64,000 nt of DNA from an uncultured bacterium (GCA_964472715.1 CAYYMT010000002.1:2602-66601), one strand, 5' to 3'; shown: positions 6,196 through 39,776, numbered from the stretch's first letter. Notes: generated from the sequence alone by a model not told the origin. Translations and numbers: made by a program.

Positions 6196-6383
6196 TAATC
6201 AATATTTCTAAATAAATTAAAACAGTCAACACGGTTAATTCATAATTCGTAACCTTTACAAAAAGCCTCATAATTTCAACTTTAAAAGACAAATTTGCAA
6301 CCATCTTATGAAGATAATTTTTTATGCCATAGCAAAATTTCAATAATTTAACTAACCAACTGAACAAAAGTGTCTTAATTAAA

Positions 6384-7151: not shown

Positions 7152-7153
7152 TT

Positions 7154-10397: not shown

Positions 10398-10412
10398 TCA
10401 TTTTCCTTTTTA

Positions 10413-10973
10413 TTATATATCCACAGAATAAATTGCTTTAAGATTTCTCAAATTTTGGGCCAGGTCCAGTCCGTATCCCACCACATATTTATCCGGTACT
10501 GTAAAGCCGATATAGTCGATAGGTTCCGGTGTCTTAGTATACTCTTTTGTCAAAAGCGTTACGAAGCGGACGGAACTGGTGCCACTCTCTTCCATGCGAC
10601 GTTTGAGAAATTTCATAGAGAGGCCGGTGTCGATAATGTCCTCCACAACCAACACATCGCGTCCGGTTATGTCACAGCTTATATCCTTTAACAAACGAAC
10701 AGTTCCGCTGGATTTGGTTTTATTCTGATACGAGGATATTTTAATGAAATCAACTTCCGCATCCAGATCCAGTTCGCGAAACAGATCAGCAAAAAATATA
10801 AAACTACCATTCAGTACACCAATAATAATAGGTATTTTACCTTTATAGTCATTACTAATTTTGGCCGCCAGTTCTTTTACTCTTGCTCTTATTTTTTCTT
10901 CGGATATCAACACCGAAAGTCTTCTACCGGAAAACTCTCCATAATTTTCATTAAGCACGATATCTTTTGGCAT
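10413..10973 (-). CDS. hpt: Hypoxanthine-guanine phosphoribosyltransferase
   Basis: 186 aa with the PRPP-binding motif VLVVEDIIDTGLS. It sits in the conserved tilS-hpt-ftsH order. Confidence 0.9.
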   Translation of the reverse strand: MPKDIVLNENYGEFSGRRLSVLISEEKIRARVKELAAKISNDYKGKIPIIIGVLNGSFIFFADLFRELDLDAEVDFIKISSYQNKTKSSGTVRLLKDISCDITGRDVLVVEDIIDTGLSMKFLKRRMEESGTSSVRFVTLLTKEYTKTPEPIDYIGFTVPDKYVVGYGLDLAQNLRNLKAIYSVDI

Positions 10974-10974
10974 T

Positions 10975-18337: not shown

Positions 18338-18502
18338 TATCTAGCTCCTGTTAAAATTCAAGTTGAAATTGTATAAAAAAGAGATATTCTTCAGTACCGC
18401 TTTTTCATATAAATCTTTCTCTTATTAGAAAAATGTAACTATTTCAAATAACAATGTTGGTTACAAAAGATAAATAATTATCACAATGTATCCTAAAGTT
18501 TT

Positions 18503-20314: not shown

Positions 20315-20326
20315 ACGTCCCCTTTG

Positions 20327-21190
20327 CTACCAATTTAAGTTAATATTTTTTTGTTGAAGATAATCACGAACTTTGATAATGTCCTCTTTTCTGGTTAAAT
20401 CCGGCACATGTTCACAAATCGGAATTCCCTTCATGGATTTTGGATTTTCCCTGACCATATTTAAAATTGCCGTGGGAAGCTCTTTTTCCTTGCGTTTTGG
20501 ATTCAACGGACAATTTTTTACATATTGATAGATCATGTTGCCGTCAAATTTGAAAATGTTCATACTAACCCGTACAATGTCATTTTCGTCAGCAAACTTT
20601 TCAACATCTTCCGCACCGGGTTTTTCAATGATATCCTTTAAAAAGCCCTCTGAATCAGTATGCGTAATTGCAAAAGCCTCAACCTGCTCCTGTGGAAAAT
20701 CCAGTCCTTTACGATCATAATTCAACCATCCGTTCGGTGTTTTCAGAGTCGCTAATCGTTTAAATCCTTCAATCGAATAAAGGTTATCACAATTACAAAC
20801 AATAAAGGATTCCTCTTGCAGTTCAGGTAGCTGTTCCATGGCCTGAAAGACAGCATCAGCCGTTCCCAGGGGCTTTTCTCTGTTCTGTGGTACAAATTGA
20901 ATGGCATAGGAAATTTTTAATCCGTGGAAATCATTGTCCCGGTCTTTTTGTCCATATAAATCACGAATTTCACGGGCATCTTCGCCGGTCAGAATAATGA
21001 TTTCTTTTAAACCGGCCTGATAAGCATTATATAAAATGTAGTCCATGAAGGGCCGGTTATTGACCGTGATCATGCCTTTTGTTTTATGATTAGCCGTATC
21101 AATGTCCTTTTGGGACATTCCTGCCGCTGCTTCAGACTTCTTCATCCGGGAAGACTTTCCACCGGCGAGAATTAACAATTTCTTTGTCAT
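20327..21190 (-). CDS. Sugar-1-phosphate nucleotidylyltransferase (GT-A-like NTP-transferase)
   Basis: 287 aa with the N-terminal nucleotide-binding loop LLILAGGKSSRM. It is the operon partner of the GHMP anomeric kinase. Confidence 0.7.
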   Translation of the reverse strand: MTKKLLILAGGKSSRMKKSEAAAGMSQKDIDTANHKTKGMITVNNRPFMDYILYNAYQAGLKEIIILTGEDAREIRDLYGQKDRDNDFHGLKISYAIQFVPQNREKPLGTADAVFQAMEQLPELQEESFIVCNCDNLYSIEGFKRLATLKTPNGWLNYDRKGLDFPQEQVEAFAITHTDSEGFLKDIIEKPGAEDVEKFADENDIVRVSMNIFKFDGNMIYQYVKNCPLNPKRKEKELPTAILNMVRENPKSMKGIPICEHVPDLTRKEDIIKVRDYLQQKNINLNW

Positions 21191-21211
21191 TTAACCCTCT
21201 TTTTTTTGATT

Positions 21212-22471
21212 TTACAATGCAGAATACTCCGGGCTTTCAATTTCCGCAAATAACGCACGAATAAAAACGGCATAGGCACCCAAAATAACTGATTTTTTAC
21301 CCAGTTTGGAGACCTGCACTTCGGTTTTATTTCTGATCTGCGCCATGGAGTATTTGTTGAGTGAATAATTAACAGGGTCCAAAATATATTTCCCTGCCAA
21401 TGACACCACTCCGCCAATAATTATTTTTTCGGGGTTAAAAATATGTAATAAATAAGAAATTCCTCTACCTAAATTATATCCAACCTCAGACAATAATGAT
21501 GTCGCAAACTGGTCACCCTGGTTGGCGGTTTCAATGATAGTCTGAATATCCAGTTTGTCATAATTGTTCCCAACTATTTTTTCCAATCGTGTGGGTACCT
21601 TCTTCTTCAATCCTTCAATGGCCAGTCGCTGCAGCGCATAACCGGAGGCTACGGTTTCCAGACAGCCGCGCATACCACAATCACACAGCAATCCGTCTTC
21701 CTCCACCTGAATATGTCCGAATTCACCGGCCAAACCATCATTACCATTGTATAAATTGCCATTGGCGATGATACCAAGTCCAAGGCCCCAATTCACATTC
21801 AGGCACAGGACATTATTCATGTTTTGCGCCAGTCCGAATTGGGATTCAGCCAGCGCCATGACGCGGGCGTCATTTTCTATCACAACAGGTATATTTAATT
21901 TTTCTTCGAATAAATCCCGTGTCTTTTTCGTCTCATGGGTGAGATATGTATAACTTTCACCCAATTCATAGTTAACCAATCCTTTTAAAGCAATGCCGGC
22001 ACCAATTAATGTGCTATTGTCAATACCAATATTATTAACATGGGATTCCACGGCAACTCGAATATTTTCAACAATTTTTTCGGTATCTCCCTGTACGCTA
22101 ATATCAGTGACTTTCACATCTCCGATAATTTTTTTATTCAGATTGAATATGGCAATCTTTGTATTATAGGTTTCAATATCAATAGCGATGATATAGCGAG
22201 AATCAGGATTTATTCCGTAATAGGTTGGCCTGGGTCCCCCTTTTTGATTGGCTTCGCCCAATCCGTAGTCTCTGACCAATTCCAGGTCCTGTAATTCTTC
22301 AATTAGTTTATTCACCGTCGGCGGACTCATTCGTGTTCGGTTGGACAATTCGCGTTTCGGCATTTTTCCATCTGTATAAAGATATTTTAATATTGCCAGT
22401 TTGCGTAAATACTGTTTGTAGCCGACACCTTTTAAATCCTTCTGTAACCAGTTGTTCTCAATCGTATTCAT
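21212..22471 (-). CDS. ROK-family transcriptional regulator (NagC/Mlc-like)
   Basis: An N-terminal wHTH (MSPPTVNKLIEELQDLELV) is followed by an ROK sugar-kinase fold with the Zn-binding CDCGMRGCLE. The start is trimmed to ATG at 22471, which has a GGAGAAGG RBS. The 5' extension in the ORF track is unlikely to be real. Confidence 0.8.
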   Translation of the reverse strand: MNTIENNWLQKDLKGVGYKQYLRKLAILKYLYTDGKMPKRELSNRTRMSPPTVNKLIEELQDLELVRDYGLGEANQKGGPRPTYYGINPDSRYIIAIDIETYNTKIAIFNLNKKIIGDVKVTDISVQGDTEKIVENIRVAVESHVNNIGIDNSTLIGAGIALKGLVNYELGESYTYLTHETKKTRDLFEEKLNIPVVIENDARVMALAESQFGLAQNMNNVLCLNVNWGLGLGIIANGNLYNGNDGLAGEFGHIQVEEDGLLCDCGMRGCLETVASGYALQRLAIEGLKKKVPTRLEKIVGNNYDKLDIQTIIETANQGDQFATSLLSEVGYNLGRGISYLLHIFNPEKIIIGGVVSLAGKYILDPVNYSLNKYSMAQIRNKTEVQVSKLGKKSVILGAYAVFIRALFAEIESPEYSAL

Positions 22472-22749
22472 ATCACCTTCTCCATAATATCTTATCCGGT
22501 GAAAGTTAATAAAATAATTTGCTAACACACAAGTAGTTTTTTCCAAAATTAATAAATTTATTCTTTTCTGCTATAGGATTTTTTCAATTACAGATTTCCT
22601 CACTGGTTACTTTTCCTATAAAATCATTAAAACAATTGCAATAAAATGACAAAATTCCTGTATCTTTGATGACAACTAATTTCAATCTTTTTTAATCATA
22701 ATTTTGTTATGAATTGAAAATAGAATAAATTTCAAAAAAGGAGAAATCA

Positions 22750-23208
22750 ATGGCACGTAAATTATATCGCAACGACAAAGATAAAATTATTGCCGGCGTA
22801 TGCAGTGGAATCGCTGAATATCTGAATATCGATCCGGTCATTGTACGGATCATTGCACTGGGCTTGTTTTTCATGCATGGTTTTGGGTTGTTGACCTATA
22901 TCATCGCCTGGGTGATCATTCCCCCAAAGGAATTCAAGGATAAGGATGAGAATGAAGTAGAACCCGCAAAAAAACAATCAGCCGGTGGCAGCACCAAAAT
23001 AATCATCGGGGTTATCCTGATCATATTCGGGGCCCTGGTGGCCCTGGATAAATCTTTTTACTATACCCATTTTGTCACCAGGGTATTTCACCTGACCTGG
23101 GAATATTTCGTACCGCTGGCGCTGATTATTGCCGGGGTTTTCATCCTGATGCAGGGAAAAAAGGATACGGATAAAAAAGATGATAAAGATGTCAGAGATT
23201 TTACATAG
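22750..23208 (+). CDS. PspC-domain membrane protein
   Basis: 152 aa with an N-terminal PspC domain (DKIIAGVCSGIAEYLNIDPVIVRIIALGLFF) and TM helices. Confidence 0.8.
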   Translation: MARKLYRNDKDKIIAGVCSGIAEYLNIDPVIVRIIALGLFFMHGFGLLTYIIAWVIIPPKEFKDKDENEVEPAKKQSAGGSTKIIIGVILIIFGALVALDKSFYYTHFVTRVFHLTWEYFVPLALIIAGVFILMQGKKDTDKKDDKDVRDFT

Positions 23209-23226
23209 TCTGTTTTTTGAAGCAAA

Positions 23227-23267
23227 AAAAAGCGCTTGATTCATAGAACAAGCGCTTTTTTTATTTT
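23227..23267. terminator. Bidirectional rho-independent terminator between convergent pspC-like and nagA genes
   Basis: A 10-bp AAAGCGCTTG...CAAGCGCTTT hairpin is flanked by an A-run upstream and a T-run downstream, so it can terminate transcripts from both strands. Confidence 0.8.
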
Positions 23268-23276
23268 AGGTTTAAT

Positions 23277-24449
23277 TTAAAGATTATTCTTTTTTATGAT
23301 GCCTTTGGTCATTACCATCTTGATATTGAACTCTTTATCAAAAACAGTAATATCAGCGGATTTTCCTGGAATGATATAGCCCTTATCAAATTGCCTGCTG
23401 ATAACTGTTGCCGGATTACAGGCTGCCATTCGCAATGAGTCTTCCAGGGAAACGCCAATTTCATTCAGGTATTTGACACCCTTGATCATCGTAAGCGAGG
23501 AACCGGCAATTGTATCATCGCCTTTCTTTTTAAAAAGACCGCCGCTGAAATAAACCTCTTCGCCATTGGCCATTAATTTTCCGGTAGTCTGGCAGGTGGG
23601 CCGCAGTGCGTCAGTGACCATGACAATTTTGTGGATCGGCTTTACCCGCAGTAATAATTTTATGATTGCCGGGTGAACATGATGGCCATCGGCAATGACT
23701 TCACAACTGATATTGGGATGAATCATAATACCACCAACAACACCGGGGTCCCGGTGATGCAAGCGCCGCATAGCATTAAAAAAGTGAGTGGAATGCAGAA
23801 TACCGGCCTGCATTCCTTCAACCATATGTTCGTAAGTCGCATTGGAATGACCGGCCGACAAAACAATGCCCTGTTTGGTTCCGTACAGCGCCAGTTCACG
23901 CATATTCTTTAATTCCGGCGCAACCGTCATAATAGCAATTTTTCCCCTGGAAGTCTCATAATATTTTTTCATCAGATCCAGGTCGACCTCTTTCATATAT
24001 TGCTGATCCAGAGCGCCATGTTTATCCCTGGATACAAAAGGTCCTTCCAGGTGATGTCCCAGCACTTCCGCGCCGGGTTCATTATCCATGGCATCGGATA
24101 TGGCTTTTATTCCGGTTAAAAAATCATCCTCCTGCTGGGGATACATTGTAGGACAAAAGGAAGTCACACCATGCTCAATCAGGGCTTCCGACATGCCGTG
24201 AATCGCGTCCGGGGAATTGTCACTGGTATCATAGCCTTTGATGCCATGAATATGTGTATCGATAAATCCCGGTGAAACCACCGCACCGTTGACATCATAG
24301 ACTTCCGCATCTTTGGGTATATCTTTACTTGTAAATCGTTCATTGGAGATGACATCCTCGATCCTGCCATCTTTAATAATGACAGTATTGTTTTCGAGCA
24401 ATGCGACACCTGTAAAAATTTTTCCATTATAAAGTATGATTGTATTCAT
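23277..24449 (-). CDS. nagA: N-acetylglucosamine-6-phosphate deacetylase
   Basis: 390 aa from the amidohydrolase superfamily, with NagA-type metal-ligand motifs (GFIDTHIHG ... HF.N.M). Confidence 0.85.
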   Translation of the reverse strand: MNTIILYNGKIFTGVALLENNTVIIKDGRIEDVISNERFTSKDIPKDAEVYDVNGAVVSPGFIDTHIHGIKGYDTSDNSPDAIHGMSEALIEHGVTSFCPTMYPQQEDDFLTGIKAISDAMDNEPGAEVLGHHLEGPFVSRDKHGALDQQYMKEVDLDLMKKYYETSRGKIAIMTVAPELKNMRELALYGTKQGIVLSAGHSNATYEHMVEGMQAGILHSTHFFNAMRRLHHRDPGVVGGIMIHPNISCEVIADGHHVHPAIIKLLLRVKPIHKIVMVTDALRPTCQTTGKLMANGEEVYFSGGLFKKKGDDTIAGSSLTMIKGVKYLNEIGVSLEDSLRMAACNPATVISRQFDKGYIIPGKSADITVFDKEFNIKMVMTKGIIKKNNL

Positions 24450-30095: not shown

Positions 30096-30917
30096 TTAAA
30101 CCAAATCCTGCAATATTTTTGAGAACCCATTCTTATTGTTGCTGGTAGTTGTGTGAAATTTATCCCGCAAGGGCGGCGGACTATTGGCCACCACATAACT
30201 TTGCGCTGTCCATTCCAGCATGTCAAGATCATTGTAATCATTGCCAAAGCTGATCGTATTGCGCTGTTCTATTCCCAAATGGTCACAGACCCACTGGCAA
30301 CCGGATTTTTTAGATACCCGGGGATGAAAAATCTCCATCCAGATTGACTGATGGTCAAGGGGCGAAGTGGTTCGAATTACTTTAACATTTTCCAATTGAC
30401 GGCGGATGGCCTCGAACTTTTCCAAATCATCAAAAATGGCTAAAAACTGAGAAGCCAGGTTCAGATCGGGATGTACCACATGCATGCGGTCCGCATGATC
30501 CAAATAGAGATTTAGCCGGCGCTGAAAATCTTCCATAACCTCATCATGATGAAAATAATAAAACTGGTGATTGTCAGGCACTTCGCGGTGGAGCATGAAA
30601 TTTATCTTTTCACGCATCAGCAGAGCGGACACACTGTCGATCTGGTGACGGGTCAAATTGCAGCTGTGAATCAAATGTTTGGTTTTCCAGTCCATAATAC
30701 CGGCGCCGGAGGAAAAAACCACATAATCCACAGGAAAGTCTGGTGCAAGGGCCCTGTTTAAAGAATAGAGGTTCCGCCCGGTGGCGATTACTCTGGAAAT
30801 ATTTTTGTCTTTTAAATGATGCAGCATATCCAGATCAATCCGGCTGATTTCATGATCAGAATTGAGGAGCGTACCATCAAGATCGGTAAAAACGATTTTT
30901 ATTGTTGATTTATTCAT
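30096..30917 (-). CDS. HAD-superfamily Cof-type sugar phosphatase
   Basis: HAD motif I reads FTDLDGTLL, followed by a Cof-like cap. The start is trimmed to ATG at 30917 (MNKSTIKIVF...). The six-frame ORF extends to 31052. Confidence 0.75.
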   Translation of the reverse strand: MNKSTIKIVFTDLDGTLLNSDHEISRIDLDMLHHLKDKNISRVIATGRNLYSLNRALAPDFPVDYVVFSSGAGIMDWKTKHLIHSCNLTRHQIDSVSALLMREKINFMLHREVPDNHQFYYFHHDEVMEDFQRRLNLYLDHADRMHVVHPDLNLASQFLAIFDDLEKFEAIRRQLENVKVIRTTSPLDHQSIWMEIFHPRVSKKSGCQWVCDHLGIEQRNTISFGNDYNDLDMLEWTAQSYVVANSPPPLRDKFHTTTSNNKNGFSKILQDLV

Positions 30918-30989
30918 TTGATATTTTGCTTTTTTATACTTAGCATTTATTCCATTATAACCTAATAATCGAAAAAATACACAGAATCC

Positions 30990-32120
30990 ATGAAAATTGA
31001 AAATGTTGAAATTACAAAATATGAAATAGCGCCTTATCTCAGAAGCGGTCACCGCCTAACCCTTCAGGAAAAGATCAAAGCCCTGATTGATCATCAACTT
31101 ACCCCTGTTTCCGGTTTTCCAGTGCTTATTAAAAATATGAAGCAATACATGAATTCCAGTTTTGCTTATATCAAGATCAACAATATTACCTATCGAATAT
31201 TCTTTAATCCGACACGCACAAAGAATGTCCGCGCCAATACATTCACCGACAAAACCAATAATCACAAATGCCTGCTTTGCGATCTGTTACCCGGACAAAA
31301 AGGACTCAGGGCTATAGACGGAAAATATATGATCATTCTGAATCCCGGCATTACAATTCCCGGCGATTTGACGATTCCCACAATCCGTCATGAGTTACAA
31401 ATACTGGATAACAAATTTTCTGATATGCTTGATTTGTCGCGAAAATTACCAGACTACTCTATTTATTTCAATGGCCCTCTGGCCGGCGCCACTTGTCCGC
31501 ACTTTCATTTTCAGGCCGGAATCAGGGACCGGCTTCCGCTGGAAAATTCTATCAATCAAATTATTGAAAAAAAACCAGCAGAGCGTTCTAACATCAATTG
31601 TATTTATCAATCCAAAGAAACCCATATTTTTCATATCCCTTCATTTGCTCCTGTCACTTATGCCTGTTTTACCCCATCCAAAGACGAGGCCGAAAAATTT
31701 ATGCAACACATGCTGCCAGCCTTGAAAGAACTTGATAAACAGTATATTCACAGCATTGAAAACATTCCTGATTTTGGTAGAGTCATTAAAGTCTTTGGTC
31801 AAGAGGAGTCCGAAGCCCGCTTCAATCTCATGGTAAAATATTATCCCAAAAAGAAAAAATACCTGACTGTTATTTTTCCGAAACTCTACAACCGCCCAAA
31901 AATATATTTTGCGGCGGAAAAAAAGCGAATGATACTGGGTTTTGCCATCAAGGAAGCCCTGGGACATATTTTAACTTCAAAACGTGAGGATCTATTCAGA
32001 TTGTTAGAGGATAAAGAAATTTTGCGTCAATCCTATTCAAATACTTCAATAACTCCTGTTATGAGAAAACAATTATCCCAAAAATTAAAAATTGCTTACA
32101 AACTAAAAAATCCGGTGTAA
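30990..32120 (+). CDS. HIT/GalT-superfamily-like protein of unknown function (HxHxQ motif)
   Basis: 376 aa with a PHFHFQAG motif matching the histidine-triad-like nucleotidyl-transfer motif of Ap4A-phosphorylase and GalT-like enzymes. It is divergent from the HAD phosphatase gene. Confidence 0.45.
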   Translation: MKIENVEITKYEIAPYLRSGHRLTLQEKIKALIDHQLTPVSGFPVLIKNMKQYMNSSFAYIKINNITYRIFFNPTRTKNVRANTFTDKTNNHKCLLCDLLPGQKGLRAIDGKYMIILNPGITIPGDLTIPTIRHELQILDNKFSDMLDLSRKLPDYSIYFNGPLAGATCPHFHFQAGIRDRLPLENSINQIIEKKPAERSNINCIYQSKETHIFHIPSFAPVTYACFTPSKDEAEKFMQHMLPALKELDKQYIHSIENIPDFGRVIKVFGQEESEARFNLMVKYYPKKKKYLTVIFPKLYNRPKIYFAAEKKRMILGFAIKEALGHILTSKREDLFRLLEDKEILRQSYSNTSITPVMRKQLSQKLKIAYKLKNPV

Positions 32121-32139
32121 AAACCGGATTTTTATTTGC

Positions 32140-32229
32140 GGAGAGTGCGAGATTCGAACTCGCGATACCGTTACTAACGGTATACTCGCTTAGCAGGCGA
32201 GCGCCTTCAGCCGACTCGGCCAACTCTCC
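32140..32229 (-). tRNA. tRNA-Ser (anticodon GCU)
   Basis: The cloverleaf was folded by hand: acceptor GGAGAGU/ACUCUCC, anticodon loop CUGCUAA, a long variable arm (UAUACCGUUAGUAACGGUAU), and T-loop GCGAGUUCGAAUCUCGC. Confidence 0.85.
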
Positions 32230-32250
32230 CTGGAAAGTTTCTTTCCAAAG

Positions 32251-32334
32251 CGGAGGTGGAGGGACTCGAACCCCCAAGGGCGCAAACCCGGCGGTTTTCA
32301 AGACCGCTGCCTTACCAATTAGGACTACACCTCC
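32251..32334 (-). tRNA. tRNA-Ser (anticodon UGA)
   Basis: Acceptor GGAGGUG/CACCUCC, anticodon loop CUUGAAA, an extended variable arm and T-loop GGGGGUUCGAGUCCCUC. The anticodon is UGA and reads UCA codons, so this is not tRNA-Sec. Confidence 0.85.
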
Positions 32335-32558: not shown

Positions 32559-33278
32559 TCAGTGACTTAGATATTCTTCAGCCTTTTTAATTGCCGGCAA
32601 CTTTCCCACATCCAGCCAAAAAGAGTCATTATGAACATAACCACTGATCAGATGGCTTTTTGCCAGGTCAAGATACCAGTGAATAATCGAGAATATCTGT
32701 TCCTCCGGCTTGTATTGAAATATTGCCGGATCAATGACATGTATGCCGCTAAAAGCATAGGCATTCAGATCATTAGAGTGCTGGCAGGTATAAACCGAGT
32801 TTCCGGTTTTCACATTTTTCCAACCACGTAAATAATTGTCGTCATCAAAGAGCAGATAGCGACTGGTTGTCCTGTTCCTGACTGCTAATGTTGCCAACGC
32901 CTTATTCCGGTGGTGAAAGGCCACCATTTTATCTAAATCAATGTCGGTGATGATATCAACATTATAAACAACAAAAGGATCATTGGCCAGCCATTTTTCC
33001 ATTTTAAAAAGACCGCCACCGGTATTCAGTAATTGTTGTCGTTCGTCGGAAATATGGATAATTACACCGAAATTATTATGCCGGTGAAGATATTCCAGAA
33101 TCAAATCTCCAAAGTGGTGGATATTGATAACAAATTCCTGAATGCCGTATTTTTTAAGGTAATTAATGGCGAGTTCCAGCAGTGTTTTCCCACCAATCTC
33201 AACCAGCGCTTTTGGTTTATTATCAGTCAGGGGTTGTAACCGGGAGCCAAGTCCGGCAGCGAAAATAACTGCTTTCAT
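32559..33278 (-). CDS. Sugar-1-phosphate nucleotidylyltransferase, MurU-like
   Basis: 239 aa with an N-terminal MKAVIFAAGLGSRLQPLTDNKPKALVEIGGKTLLE NTP-transferase loop. It lies immediately downstream of an APH-family kinase gene, as in the AmgK-MurU peptidoglycan-recycling pair. Confidence 0.7.
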   Translation of the reverse strand: MKAVIFAAGLGSRLQPLTDNKPKALVEIGGKTLLELAINYLKKYGIQEFVINIHHFGDLILEYLHRHNNFGVIIHISDERQQLLNTGGGLFKMEKWLANDPFVVYNVDIITDIDLDKMVAFHHRNKALATLAVRNRTTSRYLLFDDDNYLRGWKNVKTGNSVYTCQHSNDLNAYAFSGIHVIDPAIFQYKPEEQIFSIIHWYLDLAKSHLISGYVHNDSFWLDVGKLPAIKKAEEYLSH

Positions 33279-33284
33279 AATCGA

Positions 33285-34724
33285 TCACTCCGTTTCAAAC
33301 AGATGGCTTTCCATATGACTGACATCAACAGCCAGCCCATATTTTTCTTTCAGATGGCGGGCGAGATTTTCAGCGCAATAGACAGACCGGTGCTGGCCGC
33401 CGGTGCAACCGAAGCTAACCATTAAATGGGTAAAATTCCGTTCCAGGTAATTATCCACCGCCATATCTACAATCCCATTCGTCTTATCTATAAAATTTTT
33501 AACGTCATCTTTGGTACGAAAAAATTCAATGACGTCCTGATCCCTGCCTGTAGACTGGCTGAATTCGGCATACCTCCCGGGATTGCTGAGACAGCGGCAA
33601 TCAAAAATAAATCCTCCGCCATTCCCCGATGTATCAACGGGAAGTCCTTTCTTATAAGAAAAACTTTTAATTGTCACTGTGAGATCATTTTGTTCTTTGA
33701 CAATATTTCGTAACAACTGTGATTTTGTTGTCTTTTGCAGGGCATTTAAAAGACTGGGGAGTTTCAGGGGCATTCGATAATTTTCCAGTAAATACTCCAG
33801 ATTTTTTAAAGCATAGGGTATTGATTTTAAGAAATGACGCTTCTTTTCATAAAACCCCCGAAAGCCATATGCCCCCATGGCCTGCATGATTCGAATCAGC
33901 ACATATCCCTGAAAATATTCCAAAAATTCTTCCCTGTTTACCGGAATATACTGTTCCAGTTCGTCCAGGTAATAGGCCATTAATTCCGACCGTACATGCT
34001 GTGGAATATTCGCTTTGGAGTCATAAAGCAACGAGGCCAGGTCATATTGCAGCGCGCCTTCTCTTCCCCCCTGGTAATCGATAAAATAGACATCCTCATG
34101 CTTCAGCATAATATTTCGCGACTGAAAATCCCGGTATAAAAAATAATGGCAATCGGTTTGCAATAAATAATCGGTGAAAGTATGAAAATCCTTTTCCAGT
34201 TCCTGCTCGTTAAAGCCAATCCTGGCCAGTTTGAGAAAATAATATTTAAAATAATTCAGGTCCCACATCATGGACTGCTTGTCAAAACTGTGACGGGGAT
34301 AAGCATAAGAAAAATCCAGATTCTTACTGCCGGCAACCTGGAATTGCGGCAGATTTTTAAGTACTTTTTTATAAGTCCTTTTAAGTTGATCCGGAAATTC
34401 TTCTCCCTGGTAAATTCCCGACAAATATTGATATAGCGTTATATCCCCAAGATCCTCCTGCAAATAAATATTATTCACAAGGTCGCTGAGGTAGATGCGG
34501 GGAACATTTAAATTTTTTGCATAAAACTGTTCACTGTAATATAAAAAAGCCTGGTTTTCCTGGTAATCTTCATTAAATGTACCAATGGCGCTTTTGGTTT
34601 TGCCGTATATTCTTATATATTCACGGTAGGAGCCGGAGCGGGGTAGTTTCTGTACCTCAAGGGCTTCTTCTCCAGACCATCTTACGAACATTTCAATTAA
34701 TTTATTTTTGGTTTCAGTATTCAT
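33285..34724 (-). CDS. APH-family (AmgK-like) anomeric sugar kinase fused to a RapZ C-terminal-like domain
   Basis: The N-terminal roughly 330 aa form a phosphotransferase/APH fold (YRDFQSRNIML catalytic-loop analog, IDYQGG). The C-terminal roughly 140 aa match the RapZ/YvcJ C-terminal domain, including GGGFIFDCRCLSNPGR. Confidence 0.6.
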   Translation of the reverse strand: MNTETKNKLIEMFVRWSGEEALEVQKLPRSGSYREYIRIYGKTKSAIGTFNEDYQENQAFLYYSEQFYAKNLNVPRIYLSDLVNNIYLQEDLGDITLYQYLSGIYQGEEFPDQLKRTYKKVLKNLPQFQVAGSKNLDFSYAYPRHSFDKQSMMWDLNYFKYYFLKLARIGFNEQELEKDFHTFTDYLLQTDCHYFLYRDFQSRNIMLKHEDVYFIDYQGGREGALQYDLASLLYDSKANIPQHVRSELMAYYLDELEQYIPVNREEFLEYFQGYVLIRIMQAMGAYGFRGFYEKKRHFLKSIPYALKNLEYLLENYRMPLKLPSLLNALQKTTKSQLLRNIVKEQNDLTVTIKSFSYKKGLPVDTSGNGGGFIFDCRCLSNPGRYAEFSQSTGRDQDVIEFFRTKDDVKNFIDKTNGIVDMAVDNYLERNFTHLMVSFGCTGGQHRSVYCAENLARHLKEKYGLAVDVSHMESHLFETE

Positions 34725-34881
34725 CTTCTCTCTTTGGTTAGTATTTAAAATTACCCATAAAATCTAAAAAACAGACTGTAAATTACCAAAAAGCGACTAA
34801 ATATCTGTACATTTTTTTGGCTTTTTCAAAATTAATCATGAAATTAGTCAACTTAAATACATAAAAAATGCAAGGAAATCT

Positions 34882-37842
34882 ATGGACGCGCATGAATTAA
34901 TCTACTACTACAATAAATTTAAATTCGGTGATGAATGCTATCACAACCTGATGACCGACCGCATCGAAAGTATCTTACTGGTCTCATCCTTTTACGATGC
35001 CTATACTTTTGAGCAGGACGGCCAGTTATCGCAGCAAATTTTTGGCGAATACCGGGAATTAAATCTTTCCATGGTACCAAAAATAACCAGCGTACCAACG
35101 GGTACGGAAGCGCTTAAGTTGCTTGAGCATGAAAAATTTGATATGGTCATTACCATGATGCACATCGGTAAAACCTCTCCTTTTACCCTGGCTGAAACCA
35201 TTAAACAACAGGATCCCAATCTGCCGGTGGTGCTTTTACTCAGTATGCTTTCCGATACTAAATACCTGAAAAATAAGGATGATACAAAATTCTTCGACGA
35301 CATTTTCCTCTGGAATGGCGATTCAAAACTCTTTCTGGCCATCATCAAATCCCTGGAAGATAAAATCAATTGTGAAGCCGATACACAAAATGGCCTGGTG
35401 CGCGTAGTTCTGATTGTTGAAGACTCCATTAAATATTATTCAATGTTTCTTCCGTTACTTTATCAGGAAATCATGAAACAGACCCAGTATCTGATTGAAA
35501 GTGATGTGGCGGAAAACAATAAACGGCTGCGAATGCGCGCCCGCCCAAAATTAATTCTGGTACACAACCTGGAAGACGCAATGGAATTTTTTAATCAATA
35601 CCAGGAATATGTCATCGGTGTGATCTCCGATACCAGCTATCCTTTTAACGATGAAATGGATATGCATGCCGGCGTTAAGCTGATTTCAGCCGTCAAAAAA
35701 AGTGTTTTTGATATTCCTACAGTCCTCCTTTCTTCCGATCGATCCAACAAAAAAAATGCTGACGAAATCGAATCGCTTTTTCTTTATAAATACTCTTCAC
35801 GGCTCCTGAGACGATTGCAGAATTTTATCTTGAATCACATGGGCTTTGGTGAATTTATTTTTCGCACAGCTGATCAGACAGAATTAACCCGCGCAAAAAC
35901 ACTGGGCGAATTTAAAGAGAAACTCCACCAGATTCCCAATGAATCCATTCTGTTTCACAGTGAAGCCAATCATTTTTCCGCCTGGTTAATGGCCCGGGGA
36001 GAAATTGAAATCGCCAGAAAATTAAAACCCTTAACCTATAAAGATTTTGCCTCTATTGAAGAGTTAAGAGGCTACCTGATATCAACGATCCTGGATATTC
36101 AAAAAATTCACGGCCGCGGTAAGATCATTAATTTTTATGATTATATTAATCTCGCCCCCAATGAAGTGACCCGTCTCTGCAGCGGATCGCTCGGTGGAAA
36201 AGGCAGGGGCCTGGCCTTTTTAAACTCCCTGCTGGTGGCTATGGATTTTGATGAAAAATATCCGGAGGTCAATATTTTCCTGCCCAATACAGCTATTATC
36301 GGTACCAATGAATTCGACAAATTTATCGAGATCAATAATATTGTTGAGGAAGACCTTTATGAAAAAACGGACCGTGAAGTTGACGAATATTTTATCAATT
36401 GCCGCCTAACGGATAAACTGATGCACCGGTTGGACATTATTCTGGATAATGCCCGCTATCCCCTCGCTGTGCGAAGTTCGGGACTTCTGGAAGACTCCTA
36501 TGCCGAACCTTTTGCCGGTATATACAGAACCTTTATGCTGCCCAACAATCATTCTGAAAAAAGCCTTCGTATGAAACAACTAACCGATGCCATCAAACTG
36601 GTCTTCGCTTCGGTTTTTAATTCCAAAACAAGGGAATATATTGAAAATATGGCCCATCAGTTGGATGAAGAAAAAATGGCGGTGATCATTCAGCAAATTG
36701 TGGGCAATCAATTCGGAGAAAGATATTTTTATCCCTCCTTTTCCGGAGTGGCCCAGTCATATAATTTTTATCCCATTGCCGATATGAAAAACAAGGACGG
36801 GATTGTCTCACTTGCTGTGGGTATGGGAAAAGGAGTTGTGGAAGGCGGCCGGATTTTTAGGTTTTGTCCCAAATATCCGAAAAAAGAATTTCTCCTCCCT
36901 GAAGCCCAGTTGAAAAATTCGCAACAGTCTTTTTACACCCTGAACCTGGAAAGAAACAATATTAACCTGATTGACGGGGAAGATTCCACACTGGAAAAAC
37001 TCAGTATTTATGAAGCCAAAAAACATGAATCCCTAAATCATGTCGCCTCAACCTGGGATTATCAGAACAGCCGGCTCTATCCCGGCACAAAACGCAAAGG
37101 GGCGCTTGTTATTAATTTTGACAATATTATCAAATATGATTACATCCCCTTCGCCAGGATCATGGAAAATATTCTGGACATTGCCCAGACGGCATTGGGA
37201 ATGCCGGCGGAAATCGAGTTTGCCGTTGACCTGAACAGGAACAATGAATATAACAAACCAACCTTTTATATTCTCCAGGTCCGGCCCCTTACAATTCGTT
37301 CTGAAGATGTGGAAATCCCAAAGGATATTCCAAAAGAAAAATTATTTCTATCCTCCTGTCACAGTATGGGAAATGGCATTATCAACAATCTTACGGATGT
37401 CATTTTTGTGAAGCCGGATACTTTTGATAAAACCAAGACCGAACAAATGAGGGATGAAATTTCCAAAATTAATAAACAAATGAAAGAACAGGGACAATCT
37501 TATATTCTTATCGGGCCCGGCCGCTGGGGATCACAGGACCGGTTTTTGGGCATTCCGGTAAAATTTGTAGACATATCTTATGCAAAAGTGATCATCGAAG
37601 CGGGTATCAAAGACTTTGACATTGATCCTTCACAGGGCACACATTTTTTTCATAATGTCGTTGCCATGGAATTGGGATATTTATCGATCCCGGTCAATAG
37701 CAATGATTGTCATCTCGACTGGAAATGGCTCTGCCGGCAGAATGTTATTGAAGATGGCCAATTTTTTCGTCATGTAAAACTCAAACAACCGGCAGTTGTG
37801 AAAATGGACGGGAAGCATGGTGACGCCATTATTTACAAATAA
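34882..37842 (+). CDS. Multidomain signalling protein with N-terminal receiver-like domains and a PEP-utilizer ATP-grasp (PPDK_N) domain
   Basis: 986 aa. Residues about 1-400 form REC-like alpha/beta domains. Residues about 420-800 match the PPDK_N nucleotide-binding domain of PEP synthase and pyruvate phosphate dikinase (LGGKGRGLAFLNS, VRSSGLLEDSYAEPFAGIYRTF, MAVIIQQIVG). The C-terminal region (GPGRWGSQDRFLGIPV) looks like a phospho-His swivel domain that has lost its histidine. Confidence 0.6.
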   Translation: MDAHELIYYYNKFKFGDECYHNLMTDRIESILLVSSFYDAYTFEQDGQLSQQIFGEYRELNLSMVPKITSVPTGTEALKLLEHEKFDMVITMMHIGKTSPFTLAETIKQQDPNLPVVLLLSMLSDTKYLKNKDDTKFFDDIFLWNGDSKLFLAIIKSLEDKINCEADTQNGLVRVVLIVEDSIKYYSMFLPLLYQEIMKQTQYLIESDVAENNKRLRMRARPKLILVHNLEDAMEFFNQYQEYVIGVISDTSYPFNDEMDMHAGVKLISAVKKSVFDIPTVLLSSDRSNKKNADEIESLFLYKYSSRLLRRLQNFILNHMGFGEFIFRTADQTELTRAKTLGEFKEKLHQIPNESILFHSEANHFSAWLMARGEIEIARKLKPLTYKDFASIEELRGYLISTILDIQKIHGRGKIINFYDYINLAPNEVTRLCSGSLGGKGRGLAFLNSLLVAMDFDEKYPEVNIFLPNTAIIGTNEFDKFIEINNIVEEDLYEKTDREVDEYFINCRLTDKLMHRLDIILDNARYPLAVRSSGLLEDSYAEPFAGIYRTFMLPNNHSEKSLRMKQLTDAIKLVFASVFNSKTREYIENMAHQLDEEKMAVIIQQIVGNQFGERYFYPSFSGVAQSYNFYPIADMKNKDGIVSLAVGMGKGVVEGGRIFRFCPKYPKKEFLLPEAQLKNSQQSFYTLNLERNNINLIDGEDSTLEKLSIYEAKKHESLNHVASTWDYQNSRLYPGTKRKGALVINFDNIIKYDYIPFARIMENILDIAQTALGMPAEIEFAVDLNRNNEYNKPTFYILQVRPLTIRSEDVEIPKDIPKEKLFLSSCHSMGNGIINNLTDVIFVKPDTFDKTKTEQMRDEISKINKQMKEQGQSYILIGPGRWGSQDRFLGIPVKFVDISYAKVIIEAGIKDFDIDPSQGTHFFHNVVAMELGYLSIPVNSNDCHLDWKWLCRQNVIEDGQFFRHVKLKQPAVVKMDGKHGDAIIYK

Positions 37843-37856
37843 CAAAAATTGAAAGC

Positions 37857-39776
37857 GTGCCATTACTAATGAATTATTTAAATCCTATAACGCTGAAATT
37901 TCAAGGTAACAAAAAGCACCTTGAACAGAAATTTCTCGAATATTATCTGGAGCGGAAAATATTTCAGCAAAGGGTTGCCATGGTATCCGGTACGGTTCTT
38001 TACTTGTTGTTCAGTTTTCTTGATGTTCTGATGATCCCGGAAAAAAGTCATCTCTTCTTAGGAATGCGATTTTTTATTGTTATGCCGGCCGCCCTTTTTA
38101 CACTGGTTTTGAGTTTTCAAAAAATCTATAAAAAAATCAGTCAACCGGCCTTATTCGTGACCAATTTTATCGGCGCTGTCGTCATTATCATTATGATCAT
38201 CATTGCCCATCCCCCGGTTACATATCTCTATTACGCCGGCGAGATCCTCGTCATTATTTTTGCCTTTACCTTTAGCGGGCTGCGGTTTATTTGGTCACTG
38301 GTGCTGAGCATCCTGATCATATTGATCTACCAGGCATCGGCAATTTATAATAACACACCACTTCTTTATATTATTAATAATAATTTCTTTTTTATATCCG
38401 CTAATTTCCTCTGCCTCACGGCCGCTTATATCATTGAATCCACCATGCGCAATGACTTTTTACAGTCAATTCTGTTGCAAAAAGAAAAAGATAAGGTTTC
38501 TGAACTTAACAAAAATTTAGAAGAAAAAGTTAAACTGAGAACTGAACAGTTGGAATTAACCAATCAACAACTGCAAGAGGAACTCGCTCATAGCCATCAG
38601 CTAAGGAAAGAGCAAAAAAAATTGCAGAATCAACTGATACAATCCCAAAAAATGGAGGCTATCGGGCAATTAGCCGGCGGAGTCGCTCATGATTTCAACA
38701 ATCTTCTGACTGTTATCAATGGCTATGCTGATATTATTATGTATACCACAAAATCGGACCATCCGCTTTATGAACCGGTTGAGCAAATTCTGGAAGCCGG
38801 GAAAAAGGCCGCTGATCTGACCGCCCAACTACTGGCTTTTGGCCGTAAACAACTCTTGCATCCGGCTATTATCGATCTCAATATCCTGATCAAAGATTTT
38901 GAAAAAATGCTCAGCAGTGTCGTCAAAAATGATAATGCCATTACTTTTAAATATTCAGATAATCCTATTAACATTAATATCGACTCACGGCAGATGGAGC
39001 AAGTCCTATTAAACCTTGTTCTCAACGCGAAAGATGCCATTCAGGACGGCGGTACAGTTACTATTGAAATTTCAAAAATTACTATTAATGAGGAAAACGC
39101 TTCCAAATTTCCAAAAGATACTCCCGCCGACTATGCCATGATATCCGTCCGTGATACTGGTGTCGGCATGGACCGGGAGATCGTCGATCATATTTTTGAT
39201 CCTTTTTACACAACCAAAGAAATGGGCAAAGGTACCGGACTGGGACTGTCCACAGTTTTCGGCATTATCCTGCAAAGTAAAGGAAATATTTATGTCACCA
39301 GTGAAAAAGGTATTGGGACGGAATTCCGGATTACTTTCCCATTGGTGGAATCTCCCGCTAAACTGGCGTTAGAAAACATTGAAGAATCAGAAAAGGACTT
39401 TTATGGAAAAGGCCTGATCCTGATCATTGAAGACAATCAGGAAGTGAAAAAATATGTCAGAAAGACCCTGAACTATTTCGGCTATGATACCCTGGAAGCA
39501 AAAGATTATCTCGAAGCCGCGCCGATTTTTGAAAAATTATATTTTAATATTGATCTGGTTGTCAGTGATGTCATGCTGCCGGGCATTAGCGGCGAAAAAA
39601 TTATTGAAACTTTTCTGAAAATAAAACAGGATCTCAAATATATTCTGATTTCCGGTTATACCGATTCGATCCTGGACAATAAAAAGCACATCAGCCGGGG
39701 AAATTTTATCCAAAAACCCTTTTCCCGTGAGCAATTAATGGAAAAGGTAAAATTTAATCTATCAAAGACATCCTAA
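37857..39776 (+). CDS. Hybrid sensor histidine kinase (polytopic membrane sensor, HisKA, HATPase, C-terminal REC)
   Basis: 639 aa with about 6 N-terminal TM helices, a coiled coil, an H-box (GVAHDFNNLLTVINGYADI), N/G1/G2 boxes (DTGVGMD...GKGTGLGLS) and a C-terminal receiver (LIIEDNQEVKK...VVSDVMLPGISG). Confidence 0.85.
   Translation: MPLLMNYLNPITLKFQGNKKHLEQKFLEYYLERKIFQQRVAMVSGTVLYLLFSFLDVLMIPEKSHLFLGMRFFIVMPAALFTLVLSFQKIYKKISQPALFVTNFIGAVVIIIMIIIAHPPVTYLYYAGEILVIIFAFTFSGLRFIWSLVLSILIILIYQASAIYNNTPLLYIINNNFFFISANFLCLTAAYIIESTMRNDFLQSILLQKEKDKVSELNKNLEEKVKLRTEQLELTNQQLQEELAHSHQLRKEQKKLQNQLIQSQKMEAIGQLAGGVAHDFNNLLTVINGYADIIMYTTKSDHPLYEPVEQILEAGKKAADLTAQLLAFGRKQLLHPAIIDLNILIKDFEKMLSSVVKNDNAITFKYSDNPININIDSRQMEQVLLNLVLNAKDAIQDGGTVTIEISKITINEENASKFPKDTPADYAMISVRDTGVGMDREIVDHIFDPFYTTKEMGKGTGLGLSTVFGIILQSKGNIYVTSEKGIGTEFRITFPLVESPAKLALENIEESEKDFYGKGLILIIEDNQEVKKYVRKTLNYFGYDTLEAKDYLEAAPIFEKLYFNIDLVVSDVMLPGISGEKIIETFLKIKQDLKYILISGYTDSILDNKKHISRGNFIQKPFSREQLMEKVKFNLSKTS

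Follow-up and report, generated by a model that had tools for sequence, protein, structure and literature searches.

An AmgK-like kinase fused to a RapZ C-terminal-type domain and encoded next to a MurU-like nucleotidylyltransferase in an uncultured bacterium

We analyzed two adjacent genes in a 64,000-nucleotide stretch of DNA from an uncultured bacterium (GCA_964472715.1, CAYYMT010000002.1:2602-66601), referred to below as the window; positions are counted from its first letter. One gene encodes an AmgK-like kinase of the APH fold that is fused to a C-terminal domain of the RapZ type, and the other encodes a MurU-like sugar-1-phosphate nucleotidylyltransferase. On balance, we regard the two genes as a probable two-step amino-sugar salvage module, in which the kinase carries a phospho-sugar-binding and probably dimerising regulatory domain.

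Results

Organization of the locus

Both genes lie on the minus strand. The fusion gene (33285..34724, stop codon included) encodes 479 aa and the MurU-like gene (32559..33278) encodes 239 aa; both open reading frames were found exactly where a sequence-only reading of the same DNA, made without database searches, had placed them. A spacer of 6 nt (33279..33284, minus strand; ...GAG TGA tcgatt ATG...) lies between the TGA that ends the fusion gene and the ATG at which the MurU-like gene starts; co-transcription and translational coupling are likely. Two tRNA-Ser genes (anticodons TGA and GCT; 32138..32334), identified by ARAGORN and Rfam, are located directly downstream on the same strand. Past the second tRNA, a pattern scan gave a terminator-like hairpin with an 11-bp stem and a T-run (32106..32133, minus strand), which is a consensus match only. 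The ORF map shows a divergent intergenic region of 157 bp upstream of the fusion gene (34725..34881, no strand assigned), presumed to be the promoter region, which had no Rfam match and contained a single weak sigma-70-like match in the pattern scan (34829-34800). The promoter and terminator scans of the region gave site numbers not above shuffled expectation. Regulatory RNA was also sought with Rfam in and near the locus, and only the two tRNAs were found.

Among the window genes that we scanned, none was recognisable as a MurNAc-specific recycling gene (AnmK, MurQ, MupP, or AmpG). The window also contains a distinct amino-sugar cluster that includes a GHMP kinase and an NTP-transferase of its own.

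The kinase half

The architecture proposed in the sequence-only reading, an APH kinase joined to a RapZ C-terminal domain and followed by an NTP-transferase, was borne out by Pfam (PF01636, PF22740, and PF00483). The kinase half (residues 1-335; 33720..34724, minus strand) consists of the APH fold and a helical C-terminal extension or linker, as defined using Pfam, NCBIfam, a profile search of the PDB, and Foldseek. PF01636 matched residues 35-258 of the 479-aa protein (E 5.8e-7; 30 bits against a cut-off of 23.2). The AmgK models NF045759 and NF045698 were the sole NCBIfam matches of this half (E 1.9e-10 and 8.3e-8), so the kinase was not assigned to a non-sugar APH subfamily, and its scores of 40.4 bits against 550 and 31.9 bits against 500 were below both AmgK equivalog cut-offs. 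The profile search of the PDB gave 3csv as the only sequence-level match (E 6.6e-20). The same structure, which itself scored 243 bits on NF045698, was the best Foldseek match (TM 0.77), and the top matches were all APH-fold kinases.

The putative catalytic loop YRDFQSRN (residues 197-204; 34113..34136, minus strand) is kept as [YF]RDFQSRN in 73 of the 75 family members. D199 and N204 are invariant in the family alignment, and we take them, from the general APH-fold motif, to be the equivalents of the catalytic Asp and Asn of APH and protein kinases. The segment FIDYQGG (residues 214-220; 34065..34085, minus strand) contains the predicted metal-binding, 'DFG-like' Asp216 and aligns to VIDFQDA of 3csv; I215, D216, Q218, G219, and G220 are invariant. 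As YRDFQSRN and IDYQGG are kept across the family, the kinase domain looks active. The AlphaFold model of the full-length fusion had a pLDDT of 90.9 and a pTM of 0.71, the latter not establishing a fixed interface between the kinase and the C-terminal domain (CTD). The linker between the two was conserved.

The RapZ C-terminal-type domain

[quoted passage not shown] PF22740 matched residues 348-472 (33309..33683, minus strand) with E 8.8e-35 and 120 bits against a cut-off of 27. Residues 338-461 aligned to residues 150-268 of E. coli RapZ (5o5o) in a phmmer search of the PDB (E 5e-18). The AlphaFold model of residues 336-479 superposed on the RapZ-CTD crystal structure 5o5s with TM 0.87, an rmsd of 1.8 A, and 36% identity. 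The peptide GGGFIFDCRCLSNPGR corresponds to residues 369-384 of the fusion protein. The NCBIfam RapZ model NF003828 was matched only at positions 146-276 (113 bits against a cut-off of 244), and the RapZ P-loop NTPase domain with its Walker A and B motifs (PF03668), sought with Pfam in the 479-aa protein, was absent.

In RapZ, C247 is essential and the pocket residues have been defined (PMC5737377, PMC9841335). The pocket, formed by T248, G249, H252, and R253 together with H190, binds sulfate or malonate, and the isolated CTD binds GlcN6P (PMC5737377, PMC7073468, PMC9841335). Conservation of the pocket extends far outside Enterobacteriaceae, unlike that of the RNA-binding tail (PMC7073468). 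In the fusion protein, the predicted phosphate-binding loop CTGGQHRS (residues 440-447; 33384..33407, minus strand) corresponds to C247-S254 of RapZ and retains C440 (C247), T441 (T248), G442 (G249), H445 (H252), and R446 (R253); CTGG[QRK]HRS was found in 73 of 75 family members. Other parts of the pocket are changed. The segment NPGR (residues 381-384; 33573..33584, minus strand) aligns to N188-P189-H190-W191, so that the pocket residue His190 is replaced by an invariant Gly (G383), followed by Arg or Lys (NPG[RK] in all 75 members). RapZ K251 is replaced by an invariant Gln in the fusion family. A family-specific Gly-rich segment, SGNGGG (residues 366-371; 33612..33629, minus strand), includes a five-residue insertion relative to RapZ (residues 366-370) in the loop that matches RapZ 170-178, beside the pocket, and G[NH]GGG is kept in 74 of 75 members.

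The strand FIFD (residues 372-375; 33600..33611, minus strand) aligns to the CTD dimerisation strand of RapZ (residues 179-182), and F374 and D375 are invariant. The RapZ-CTD dimer is abolished by F181A and D182A (PMC5737377). Mean column identity was 62-68% over the full length across phyla. As judged from these alignments, the RapZ-type domain is under strong constraint.

The MurU-like transferase

The 239-aa protein matched NTP_transferase (PF00483) at residues 2-235 (E 2.5e-21). Its N-terminus reads MKAVIFAAGLGSRL, with the G-x-G-(T/S)-R motif; the protein has the minimal single-domain nucleotidylyltransferase fold, and its length is close to that of MurU 4y7t (231 aa). The two MurU models were the best among 34 NCBIfam families matched, at 142.1 bits for NF045761, below its cut-off of 250, and 125 bits for NF045697 (cut-off 370); the next best family reached 81 bits. 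The top two PDB matches were also MurU structures (4y7t, E 7.7e-23; 8hhd, E 1e-18).

On these scores, both window proteins are AmgK/MurU-like rather than orthologues, because they fall far below the NCBIfam equivalog cut-offs. The AmgK/MurU pair named in the sequence-only reading therefore holds for the nearest characterised relatives in NCBIfam and the PDB, and not at equivalog level; specificity for MurNAc and GlcNAc is presumptive.

Distribution of the fusion and gene linkage

We performed two protein searches, each with at least 8000 matches, and took the architecture from the best 120 listed of each. In these best 120, all proteins carried PF22740 and nearly all also carried PF01636. Relatives of the fusion protein are encoded in at least 585 species-representative genomes of Bacteroidota, Ignavibacteria, Calditrichota, and Marinimicrobia, with 54-60% identity across phyla, and a syntenic copy with 95% identity is present in GCA_964498725.1. 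The fusion is conserved in related genomes and is not a product of chance or an assembly artefact.

In 41 of 80 loci from four phyla, the next gene downstream of the fusion encodes a MurU-like orthologue; in 38 of the 80, no MurU-like gene was present within 10 kb. Inspection by eye of the 14 largest neighbour clusters from the 80 loci gave no conserved neighbour besides the MurU-like gene. DUF4922, Cof-type HAD, REC-PPDK_N, thioredoxin, and MFS genes were considered as linked genes and dropped, as their linkage was seen only in the 95%-identical relative. In three proteins (P0284, P0224, and P0153), the kinase, the RapZ-type domain, and the MurU-like enzyme are fused into a single polypeptide. 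P0284 has 727 aa, shares 41% and 44% identity with the two proteins of the window, and occurs on at least seven contigs of up to 154 kb.

Kinases of the same clade also occur as stand-alone proteins (53 of the best 150 representatives, with genuine examples on long contigs), although some of these sequences may be truncated gene calls. One of them likewise has an NTP-transferase gene downstream. The RapZ-type domain is accordingly an accessory to the kinase. Stand-alone members of the clade scored only 50-94 bits on the AmgK models. One of the two protein searches above used a profile built from 39 stand-alone kinases; it had only fusion proteins among its best 120 listed matches, with no Tannerella name among them. 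We also considered a single origin of the fusion. In a crude neighbor-joining tree of 131 kinase domains, fused and stand-alone forms were interleaved with 33 parsimony changes, and we drew no conclusion from it.

Discussion

Proposed function

We propose that the two genes form one transcription unit for a two-step amino-sugar salvage route. The APH-fold kinase would most likely take a free N-acetyl amino sugar (MurNAc and/or GlcNAc) and phosphorylate its anomeric hydroxyl, and the MurU-like enzyme would convert the sugar-1-phosphate and UTP to a UDP-sugar for cell-wall synthesis. The RapZ-type domain, comprising the C-terminal 130-140 residues, keeps the anion/phosphate loop and the dimerisation strand; it would bind a sugar phosphate and tune kinase activity to the amino-sugar pool, probably in dimeric form. 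Its candidate ligands are GlcN6P-like molecules, the sugar-1-phosphate product, or the UDP-sugar end product. The domain may also keep the kinase near the uridylyltransferase. GlcN6P binding, which the sequence-only reading had mentioned for RapZ, cannot be assumed for the fusion because the pocket is remodelled by the change of H190 to Gly, the change of K251 to Gln, and the Gly-rich insertion. Against the proposal stand the 38 loci whose 10-kb neighbourhood is free of a MurU-like gene and the lack of a recognisable MurNAc-specific recycling gene among the window genes scanned.

Alternative explanations

Since neither enzyme reaches an equivalog cut-off, the sugar could be another one. The pair may act on another hexosamine, a hexose, or a modified sugar and supply an NDP-sugar for a surface glycan instead of peptidoglycan recycling, as might be expected from a clade distinct from proteobacterial AmgK, whose stand-alone members are also low-scoring, and from the separate amino-sugar cluster of the window, which might already cover HexNAc salvage. 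We consider this unlikely, though it is the alternative to be taken most seriously. For each of the two proteins separately, the best characterised match in both sequence and structure is AmgK or MurU, respectively; the protein family that supplied the fused domain is linked to the homeostasis of GlcN6P and UDP-GlcNAc; and the housekeeping-like conservation across phyla is easier to reconcile with a core function of the envelope than with a variable glycan. A mainly structural role of the RapZ-type domain, in which it dimerises or serves as a scaffold, brings the kinase into oligomers, and provides a docking site through which substrate is channelled to the MurU-like enzyme with no ligand sensing, would agree with the retained strand F372-I-F374-D375, the conserved linker, and the kinase-CTD-transferase order in the triple fusions. 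It would leave the invariance of the phosphate loop, NPG[RK], and the Gly-rich insertion unexplained, as these are surface or pocket elements and not dimer contacts in RapZ, and we judge it to be rather improbable. A further alternative is an RNA role like that of RapZ with GlmZ and RNase E, in which the domain would bind a regulatory RNA and bring in a ribonuclease; RNA binding as such had been raised in the sequence-only reading. The homologous RapZ CTD makes most of the RNA contacts (PMC9841335), and the equivalents of RapZ K170 and R184 (K358 and R377) are conserved. However, the window protein ends with ...SHMESHLFETE, and the basic tail needed for RNA binding (RapZ K270, K281, R282, and K283) is absent; across 75 members the tail is variable and not basic, with a mean net charge of -0.45 over the last 12 residues. 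K251 and H190 are replaced by Gln and Gly, and H190A abolishes RapZ function (PMC9841335). The tail and GlmY/GlmZ are confined to Enterobacteriaceae (PMC7073468), and Rfam detected no RNA other than the tRNAs at the locus. An RNA role is therefore very improbable. Net charge and pI of the CTD were tried as a proxy for RNA binding and did not discriminate (pI 7.9 for the window stretch and 8.8 for the RapZ stretch).

The RapZ-type domain could instead be a second catalytic domain, with Cys440 as the nucleophile that attacks a sugar phosphate for phosphoryl transfer or hydrolysis. One such reaction would be to strip the 6-phosphate from MurNAc-6-P or GlcNAc-6-P, which in Pseudomonas is the job of MupP, and the fused kinase would re-phosphorylate C1, giving a '6-P to 1-P' converter that feeds the MurU-like enzyme. 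Cys-dependent phosphatase and phosphocysteine domains (PTP, LMW-PTP, and PTS EIIB) carry a C-x5-R-(S/T) loop between a beta-strand and an alpha-helix. In our own reading of the sequence, CTGGQHRS fits the Cys-x5-Arg-(Ser/Thr) signature, and in the AlphaFold model C440-TGGQH-R446-S447 lies between the strand 433-440 and the helix 446-462. Density in the RapZ pocket was ascribed to 'a chemically transformed product' of GlcN6P (PMC9841335), phosphatase activity has been reported for YvcJ and Xanthomonas HpaP (cited in PMC7525490), and the domain is placed between both enzymes in the triple fusions. On the other hand, the reported phosphatase activity of the RapZ family is not tied to a given domain in the literature that we searched, and anion binding fully accounts for the same loop. 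Foldseek of the CTD model gave RapZ followed by weak PFK matches, as published for RapZ, with no match to low-molecular-weight PTP, PTS-EIIB, or any other fold of Cys-phosphatases. The stand-alone kinases paired with an NTP-transferase do without the domain, and no general-acid residue was identified. We thus view a catalytic domain as quite unlikely. The extended form of this proposal, in which a Cys440-dependent CTD enzyme acting on amino-sugar phosphates completes a path with the kinase and the MurU-like enzyme (sugar-6-P to free sugar to sugar-1-P to UDP-sugar), and the ancestral RapZ CTD, including that of E. coli, turns over GlcN6P-like metabolites, seems slightly less probable again. 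If true, it would explain the inactive RapZ C247S mutant and the 'chemically transformed' ligand. We therefore retain the salvage kinase with a phospho-sugar-binding regulatory domain as the preferred explanation.

Significance

In the literature that we searched, we found no study of the fusion and no paper linking AmgK to RapZ, in agreement with the earlier statement that no studied example was known. The fusion itself is already in the databases as a very large family, named 'RapZ C-terminal domain-containing protein' by NCBI, and is not peculiar to the window. In enterobacteria, RapZ is central to regulating the supply of cell-envelope precursors. The laboratories working on it have posed the open question of which function its conserved C-terminal pocket had before being co-opted for sRNA control (PMC7073468, PMC9841335). 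A very widespread natural fusion, at times including the uridylyltransferase, is 'Rosetta-stone' evidence that ties the RapZ-type domain to amino-sugar or UDP-sugar metabolism independently of RNA. It also provides a simple system, a single enzyme whose activity can be measured, for testing how the pocket acts and which ligands it prefers. In Pseudomonas, the AmgK/MurU shortcut is relevant to fosfomycin tolerance, and amgK and murU mutants are fosfomycin-hypersensitive. Recycling shortcuts of this type have so far been seen in few species (PMC13046382), and our proposal would extend them to much of the FCB group (Bacteroidota, Ignavibacteria, Calditrichota, and Marinimicrobia).

Comparison with known systems

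Bacillus subtilis YvcJ is a RapZ homologue that lacks the RNA-binding tail, is tied to UDP-GlcNAc and peptidoglycan-precursor homeostasis, and is a partner of the UDP-GlcNAc-binding protein GlmR (PMC7525490). It differs from the fusion in retaining the P-loop domain, which is required for its UDP-GlcNAc binding (K22A), and in its linkage to glmR/yvcK; no yvcK-like gene was seen by eye in the 14 largest neighbour clusters of the fusion. E. coli RapZ (5o5s, 5o5o, and 8b0i) shares with the fusion the CTD fold, the C247-TGG-H252-R253-S254 loop, the dimer strand, and N188-P189. The fusion has an unrelated APH-fold kinase in place of the N-terminal P-loop NTPase domain of RapZ, in addition to the altered pocket residues, the five-residue insertion, and the missing tail described above.

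The AmgK/MurU shortcut of Pseudomonas putida and P. aeruginosa, reported also in Legionella, Caulobacter, and Tannerella forsythia, likewise has an APH-fold kinase gene followed by a small NTP-transferase gene, and its chemistry (sugar to sugar-alpha-1-P to UDP-sugar) is identical to that predicted here. The window proteins belong to a separate clade, mainly of the FCB group, and none of the AmgK references (NCBIfam models of 324 and 360 positions; 3csv, 333 aa) includes a RapZ_C part. The closest solved structure to the kinase half is 3csv, a 'putative aminoglycoside phosphotransferase' from Silicibacter sp. TM1040 determined by structural genomics, which has 19% identity in the structural alignment and lacks the RapZ_C domain; we know of no biochemical characterisation of it. 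Bacteroides Fkp, an L-fucokinase/GDP-fucose pyrophosphorylase, is a sugar salvage enzyme on a single polypeptide. Although its folds and sugar differ and it has no RapZ-type domain, Fkp resembles the triple fusions in combining a kinase and an NDP-sugar-forming transferase in one protein.

Organization of the kinase and transferase genes

The fusion protein (479 aa) is encoded at 33285–34724 and the MurU-like protein (239 aa) at 32559–33278, both on the minus strand. The two ORFs are separated by a 6-nt spacer, which reads ...GAG TGA tcgatt ATG... in the sequence. The MurU-like gene is followed by two tRNA-Ser genes (32138–32334, minus strand; ARAGORN and Rfam), and a pattern scan detected a terminator-like hairpin beyond them (32106–32133). 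The 157-bp divergent intergenic region upstream of the fusion gene gave no Rfam match.

Pfam assigned residues 35–258 of the fusion protein to the APH family (PF01636) and residues 348–472 to the RapZ C-terminal domain (PF22740, E = 8.8e-35), and identified the 239-aa protein as an NTP_transferase. This is the architecture described in the sequence-only reading, and the peptide quoted there for the RapZ-like domain was located at residues 369–384. As the ORFs, Pfam domains and peptide position agree, that observation was right on all stated points.

Relationship to AmgK and MurU

The only kinase-family matches of the 479-aa protein in NCBIfam were two AmgK models (E = 1.9e-10 and 8.3e-8), with scores of 40 and 32 bits versus cut-offs of 550 and 500. 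MurU was the top NCBIfam match of the 239-aa protein (142 bits versus a cut-off of 250), and the second-ranked family scored only 81 bits. When the transferase was compared with PDB sequences, the top two matches were the MurU structures 4y7t (E = 7.7e-23) and 8hhd (E = 1e-18). The kinase half gave one significant PDB match, 3csv, the structure of a putative aminoglycoside phosphotransferase from Silicibacter sp. TM1040 (E = 3.8e-12 alone and 6.6e-20 with a family profile). A fragment of 3csv (residues 30–321, rebuilt from the alignment) scored 243 bits on the AmgK model NF045698; therefore, the nearest solved structure to the kinase is AmgK-type. When the AlphaFold model of the full-length protein (pLDDT 90.9, pTM 0.71) was compared by Foldseek, 3csv again ranked highest (TM 0.77), ahead of generic APH-fold small-molecule kinases.

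Across the fusion family, both the YRDFQSRN catalytic loop and the metal-binding segment IDYQGG are kept, suggesting that the kinase should be active. Judged by its closest characterised relatives and the same gene order, the pair is AmgK/MurU-like, as had been proposed, although both proteins fell below the curated NCBIfam thresholds. We infer its sugar specificity from these relationships.

Distribution of the fusion protein and linkage with the MurU-like gene

Protein searches with the fusion protein gave at least 8000 matches. PF22740 was present in all 120 of the best matches listed, nearly always with PF01636, and most of these proteins were approximately 475 aa long. Relatives were detected in at least 585 genomes when each species was represented by one genome; conservation across related genomes was among the checks suggested in the sequence-only reading. 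The carriers belong to Bacteroidota (Marinilabiliales, Prolixibacteraceae and others), Ignavibacteria, Calditrichota and Fidelibacterota/Marinimicrobia; culturable examples include Carboxylicivirga, Labilibaculum filiforme, Mariniphaga anaerophila, Caldithrix abyssi and Prolixibacter bellariivorans. The best 80 of these loci encode proteins with 53–60% identity to that of the window. A close relative of the window, GCA_964498725.1, shows 95% identity and full synteny; the next relatives among the matches listed share 72% identity and are labelled Marinimicrobia. The fusion is real, ancient and abundant, with a predicted function.

Searching exhaustively with the kinase portion yielded 722 representatives at E ≤ 1e-30. 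The best 150 comprised 77 kinase–RapZ_C proteins, 53 stand-alone kinases (315–365 aa), two kinase–RapZ_C–NTP-transferase proteins, and 18 fragments or others. Among the stand-alone kinases are genuine ones, located on long contigs, and one has an NTP-transferase gene of its own downstream. A profile of the stand-alone kinases still retrieved fusions first among the matches listed, indicating that the fused form is the dominant and best-conserved version. The RapZ-type domain is strongly constrained, yet dispensable in some lineages. Two other proteins of the kinase clade carry different C-terminal extensions: P0265 (520 aa) has a UvrB interaction domain (PF17757) and is possibly a gene-call merger, and P0138 (624 aa) has approximately 350 further residues without a Pfam match.

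In 41 of the 80 best loci, with all phyla represented, the fusion gene is immediately followed on its own strand by a MurU-like gene; in one further locus such a gene lies 6 kb away, and in the remaining 38 none was found within 10 kb. No other conserved neighbour of the fusion gene was detected among the 80 loci. In the metagenomic proteins P0284, P0224 and P0153 (727–816 aa), the AmgK-like kinase, RapZ_C and MurU-like NTP-transferase form a single polypeptide. This triple fusion is genuine. P0284 (727 aa; 6001–8184 in each of loci L083 and L084) occurs on at least seven contigs from several sources, the longest of 154 kb. Its residues 5–475 share 41% identity with the window fusion and residues 487–722 share 44% with the MurU-like protein of the window; for the transferase part, the top NCBIfam match is MurU.

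The kinase–RapZ_C architecture is already visible in public annotation, where NCBI names include 'phosphotransferase', 'RapZ C-terminal domain-containing protein' and 'RNase adapter RapZ', the last of which is misleading. In the literature searched, we found no paper mentioning both AmgK and RapZ, or both the RapZ C-terminal domain and aminoglycoside phosphotransferases, in line with the earlier statement that no studied example was known. Alternative fusions of the domain are not discussed in the RapZ structural papers (PMC5737377). The MurU pathway was still described in 2026 (PMC13046382) as known from few species, and the distribution of the fusion suggests that AmgK/MurU-type recycling is common in the FCB group. 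For the RapZ field, the fusion offers a simple system for studying the ligand or function of the conserved pocket.

Other genes in the window

A second sugar kinase/NTP-transferase set is located at 16967–24449 on the minus strand, approximately 9–16 kb from the fusion pair. It contains a GHMP galactokinase-like kinase (16967–18337), a sodium:solute symporter (18503–20314), an NTP_transferase that is not MurU-like (20327–21190), a ROK/NagC-like protein (21212–22546) and NagA (23277–24449; TIGR00221, 413 bits, above the cut-off), all on the minus strand. The set resembles a cluster for the uptake and activation of amino sugars, distinct from the kinase pair.

A DUF4922 protein (PF16269; 30990–32120, plus strand) contains the peptide CPHFHFQAG, whose H-x-H-x-Q pattern recalls GalT/HIT-type nucleotidyltransferases or phosphorylases. 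Divergent from it is a Cof-type HAD sugar phosphatase gene (30096–31052, minus strand). Synteny of these two genes with the kinase pair was confined to the 95%-identical relative and absent from the other 80 loci. As called, the HAD ORF has 318 aa and a GTG start, and it shares 63 nt with the beginning of the DUF4922 gene. Its orthologue in GCA_964498725.1 is annotated with 273 aa, and Pfam matches the window protein from residue 54 onwards. Translation probably initiates at an internal Met (MNKSTIKIVFTDLDG...).

Divergent from the fusion gene, 34882–39776 (plus strand) encodes a 986-aa protein followed by a 639-aa hybrid histidine kinase/receiver. The former combines a partial receiver domain, DUF5752 and a PPDK_N (PEP-utilising, ATP-grasp-like) domain, an unusual 'response regulator–dikinase' architecture; its gene is kept in the close relative and is elsewhere unlinked to the fusion gene. 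The housekeeping block at 6384–12375 (minus strand) encodes a CdaA-type diadenylate cyclase (DAC and CdaA_N), a pterin-binding (FolP-like) enzyme, FtsH, a phosphoribosyltransferase and TilS; of this unremarkable set, only the c-di-AMP cyclase is of note.

The RapZ-type domain and its possible role

Residues 338–461 of the fusion aligned with RapZ residues 150–268 by phmmer. The model of residues 336–479 (pLDDT 89, pTM 0.84) superimposed on the RapZ-CTD crystal structure with a TM of 0.87 and an rmsd of 1.8 Å at 36% identity. Together with the PF22740 match, these results substantiate the proposed likeness of the tail to RapZ. Besides RapZ, Foldseek matched the domain model with phosphofructokinases alone, and weakly; this resemblance has already been published for RapZ (PMC5737377). 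The isolated CTD of RapZ binds GlcN6P, and its sulfate/malonate pocket consists of H190, T248, G249, H252 and R253, close to which lies the essential C247 (PMC5737377, PMC7073468, PMC9841335).

The data are most simply read as a two-step salvage module in which an accessory domain that binds phospho-sugars is attached to the kinase. The kinase would convert an amino sugar to a sugar-1-phosphate, and the MurU-like transferase would convert this to a UDP-sugar. The RapZ-type domain would bind a phospho-sugar and match kinase activity to the pool of amino sugars or UDP-sugars; it may also aid assembly of the kinase with the transferase. MurNAc/GlcNAc as the sugar, the ligand of the CTD and the allostery are what we infer; use of another sugar by the pair is rather doubtful. 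The pocket loop C-T-G-G-K/Q-H-R-S (RapZ C247–S254; window 33384–33407), placed between a beta-strand and a helix, conforms to the signature C-x5-R-(S/T) that characterises Cys-dependent phosphatases, and the domain might be catalytic. RapZ C247S is without activity and a 'chemically transformed' ligand was observed in the RapZ pocket (PMC9841335), and phosphatase activity has been reported for YvcJ and HpaP, as cited in PMC7525490. However, Foldseek of the CTD model detected no Cys-phosphatase-like fold, and we consider catalysis improbable. In the literature searched, neither pNPP nor phosphocysteine was mentioned together with a protein name of the RapZ family.

RNA binding as in RapZ, which had been raised as a possible role of the fused domain, is very unlikely. 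The basic RNA-binding tail of RapZ (K270, K281–K283), confined to Enterobacteriaceae (PMC7073468), is missing from the fusion, which ends in ...HLFETE; the last 12 residues in the family have a mean net charge of −0.45. RapZ K251 is replaced by Gln, nearly invariantly in the fusion family, and H190 by G383, next to which stands Arg or Lys (all 75 members carry NPG[RK]).

The pocket-side loop of the fused domain has a 5-residue Gly-rich insertion (SGNGGG) relative to RapZ, with G[NH]GGG in 74 of 75 members. The RapZ dimerisation strand 179–182, in which F181A and D182A abolish the dimer (PMC5737377), corresponds to F372-I-F374-D375, with F374 and D375 invariant in the family. The fused domain probably dimerises as well; that it serves as a scaffold or dimeriser only seems quite improbable. 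RapZ C247-TGGKH-R253-S254 corresponds to C440-TGGQH-R446-S447, kept in 73 of 75 members. By this residue-by-residue comparison with RapZ, the fused domain has a remodelled pocket, retains a phosphate-binding site and is without the equipment for RNA binding.
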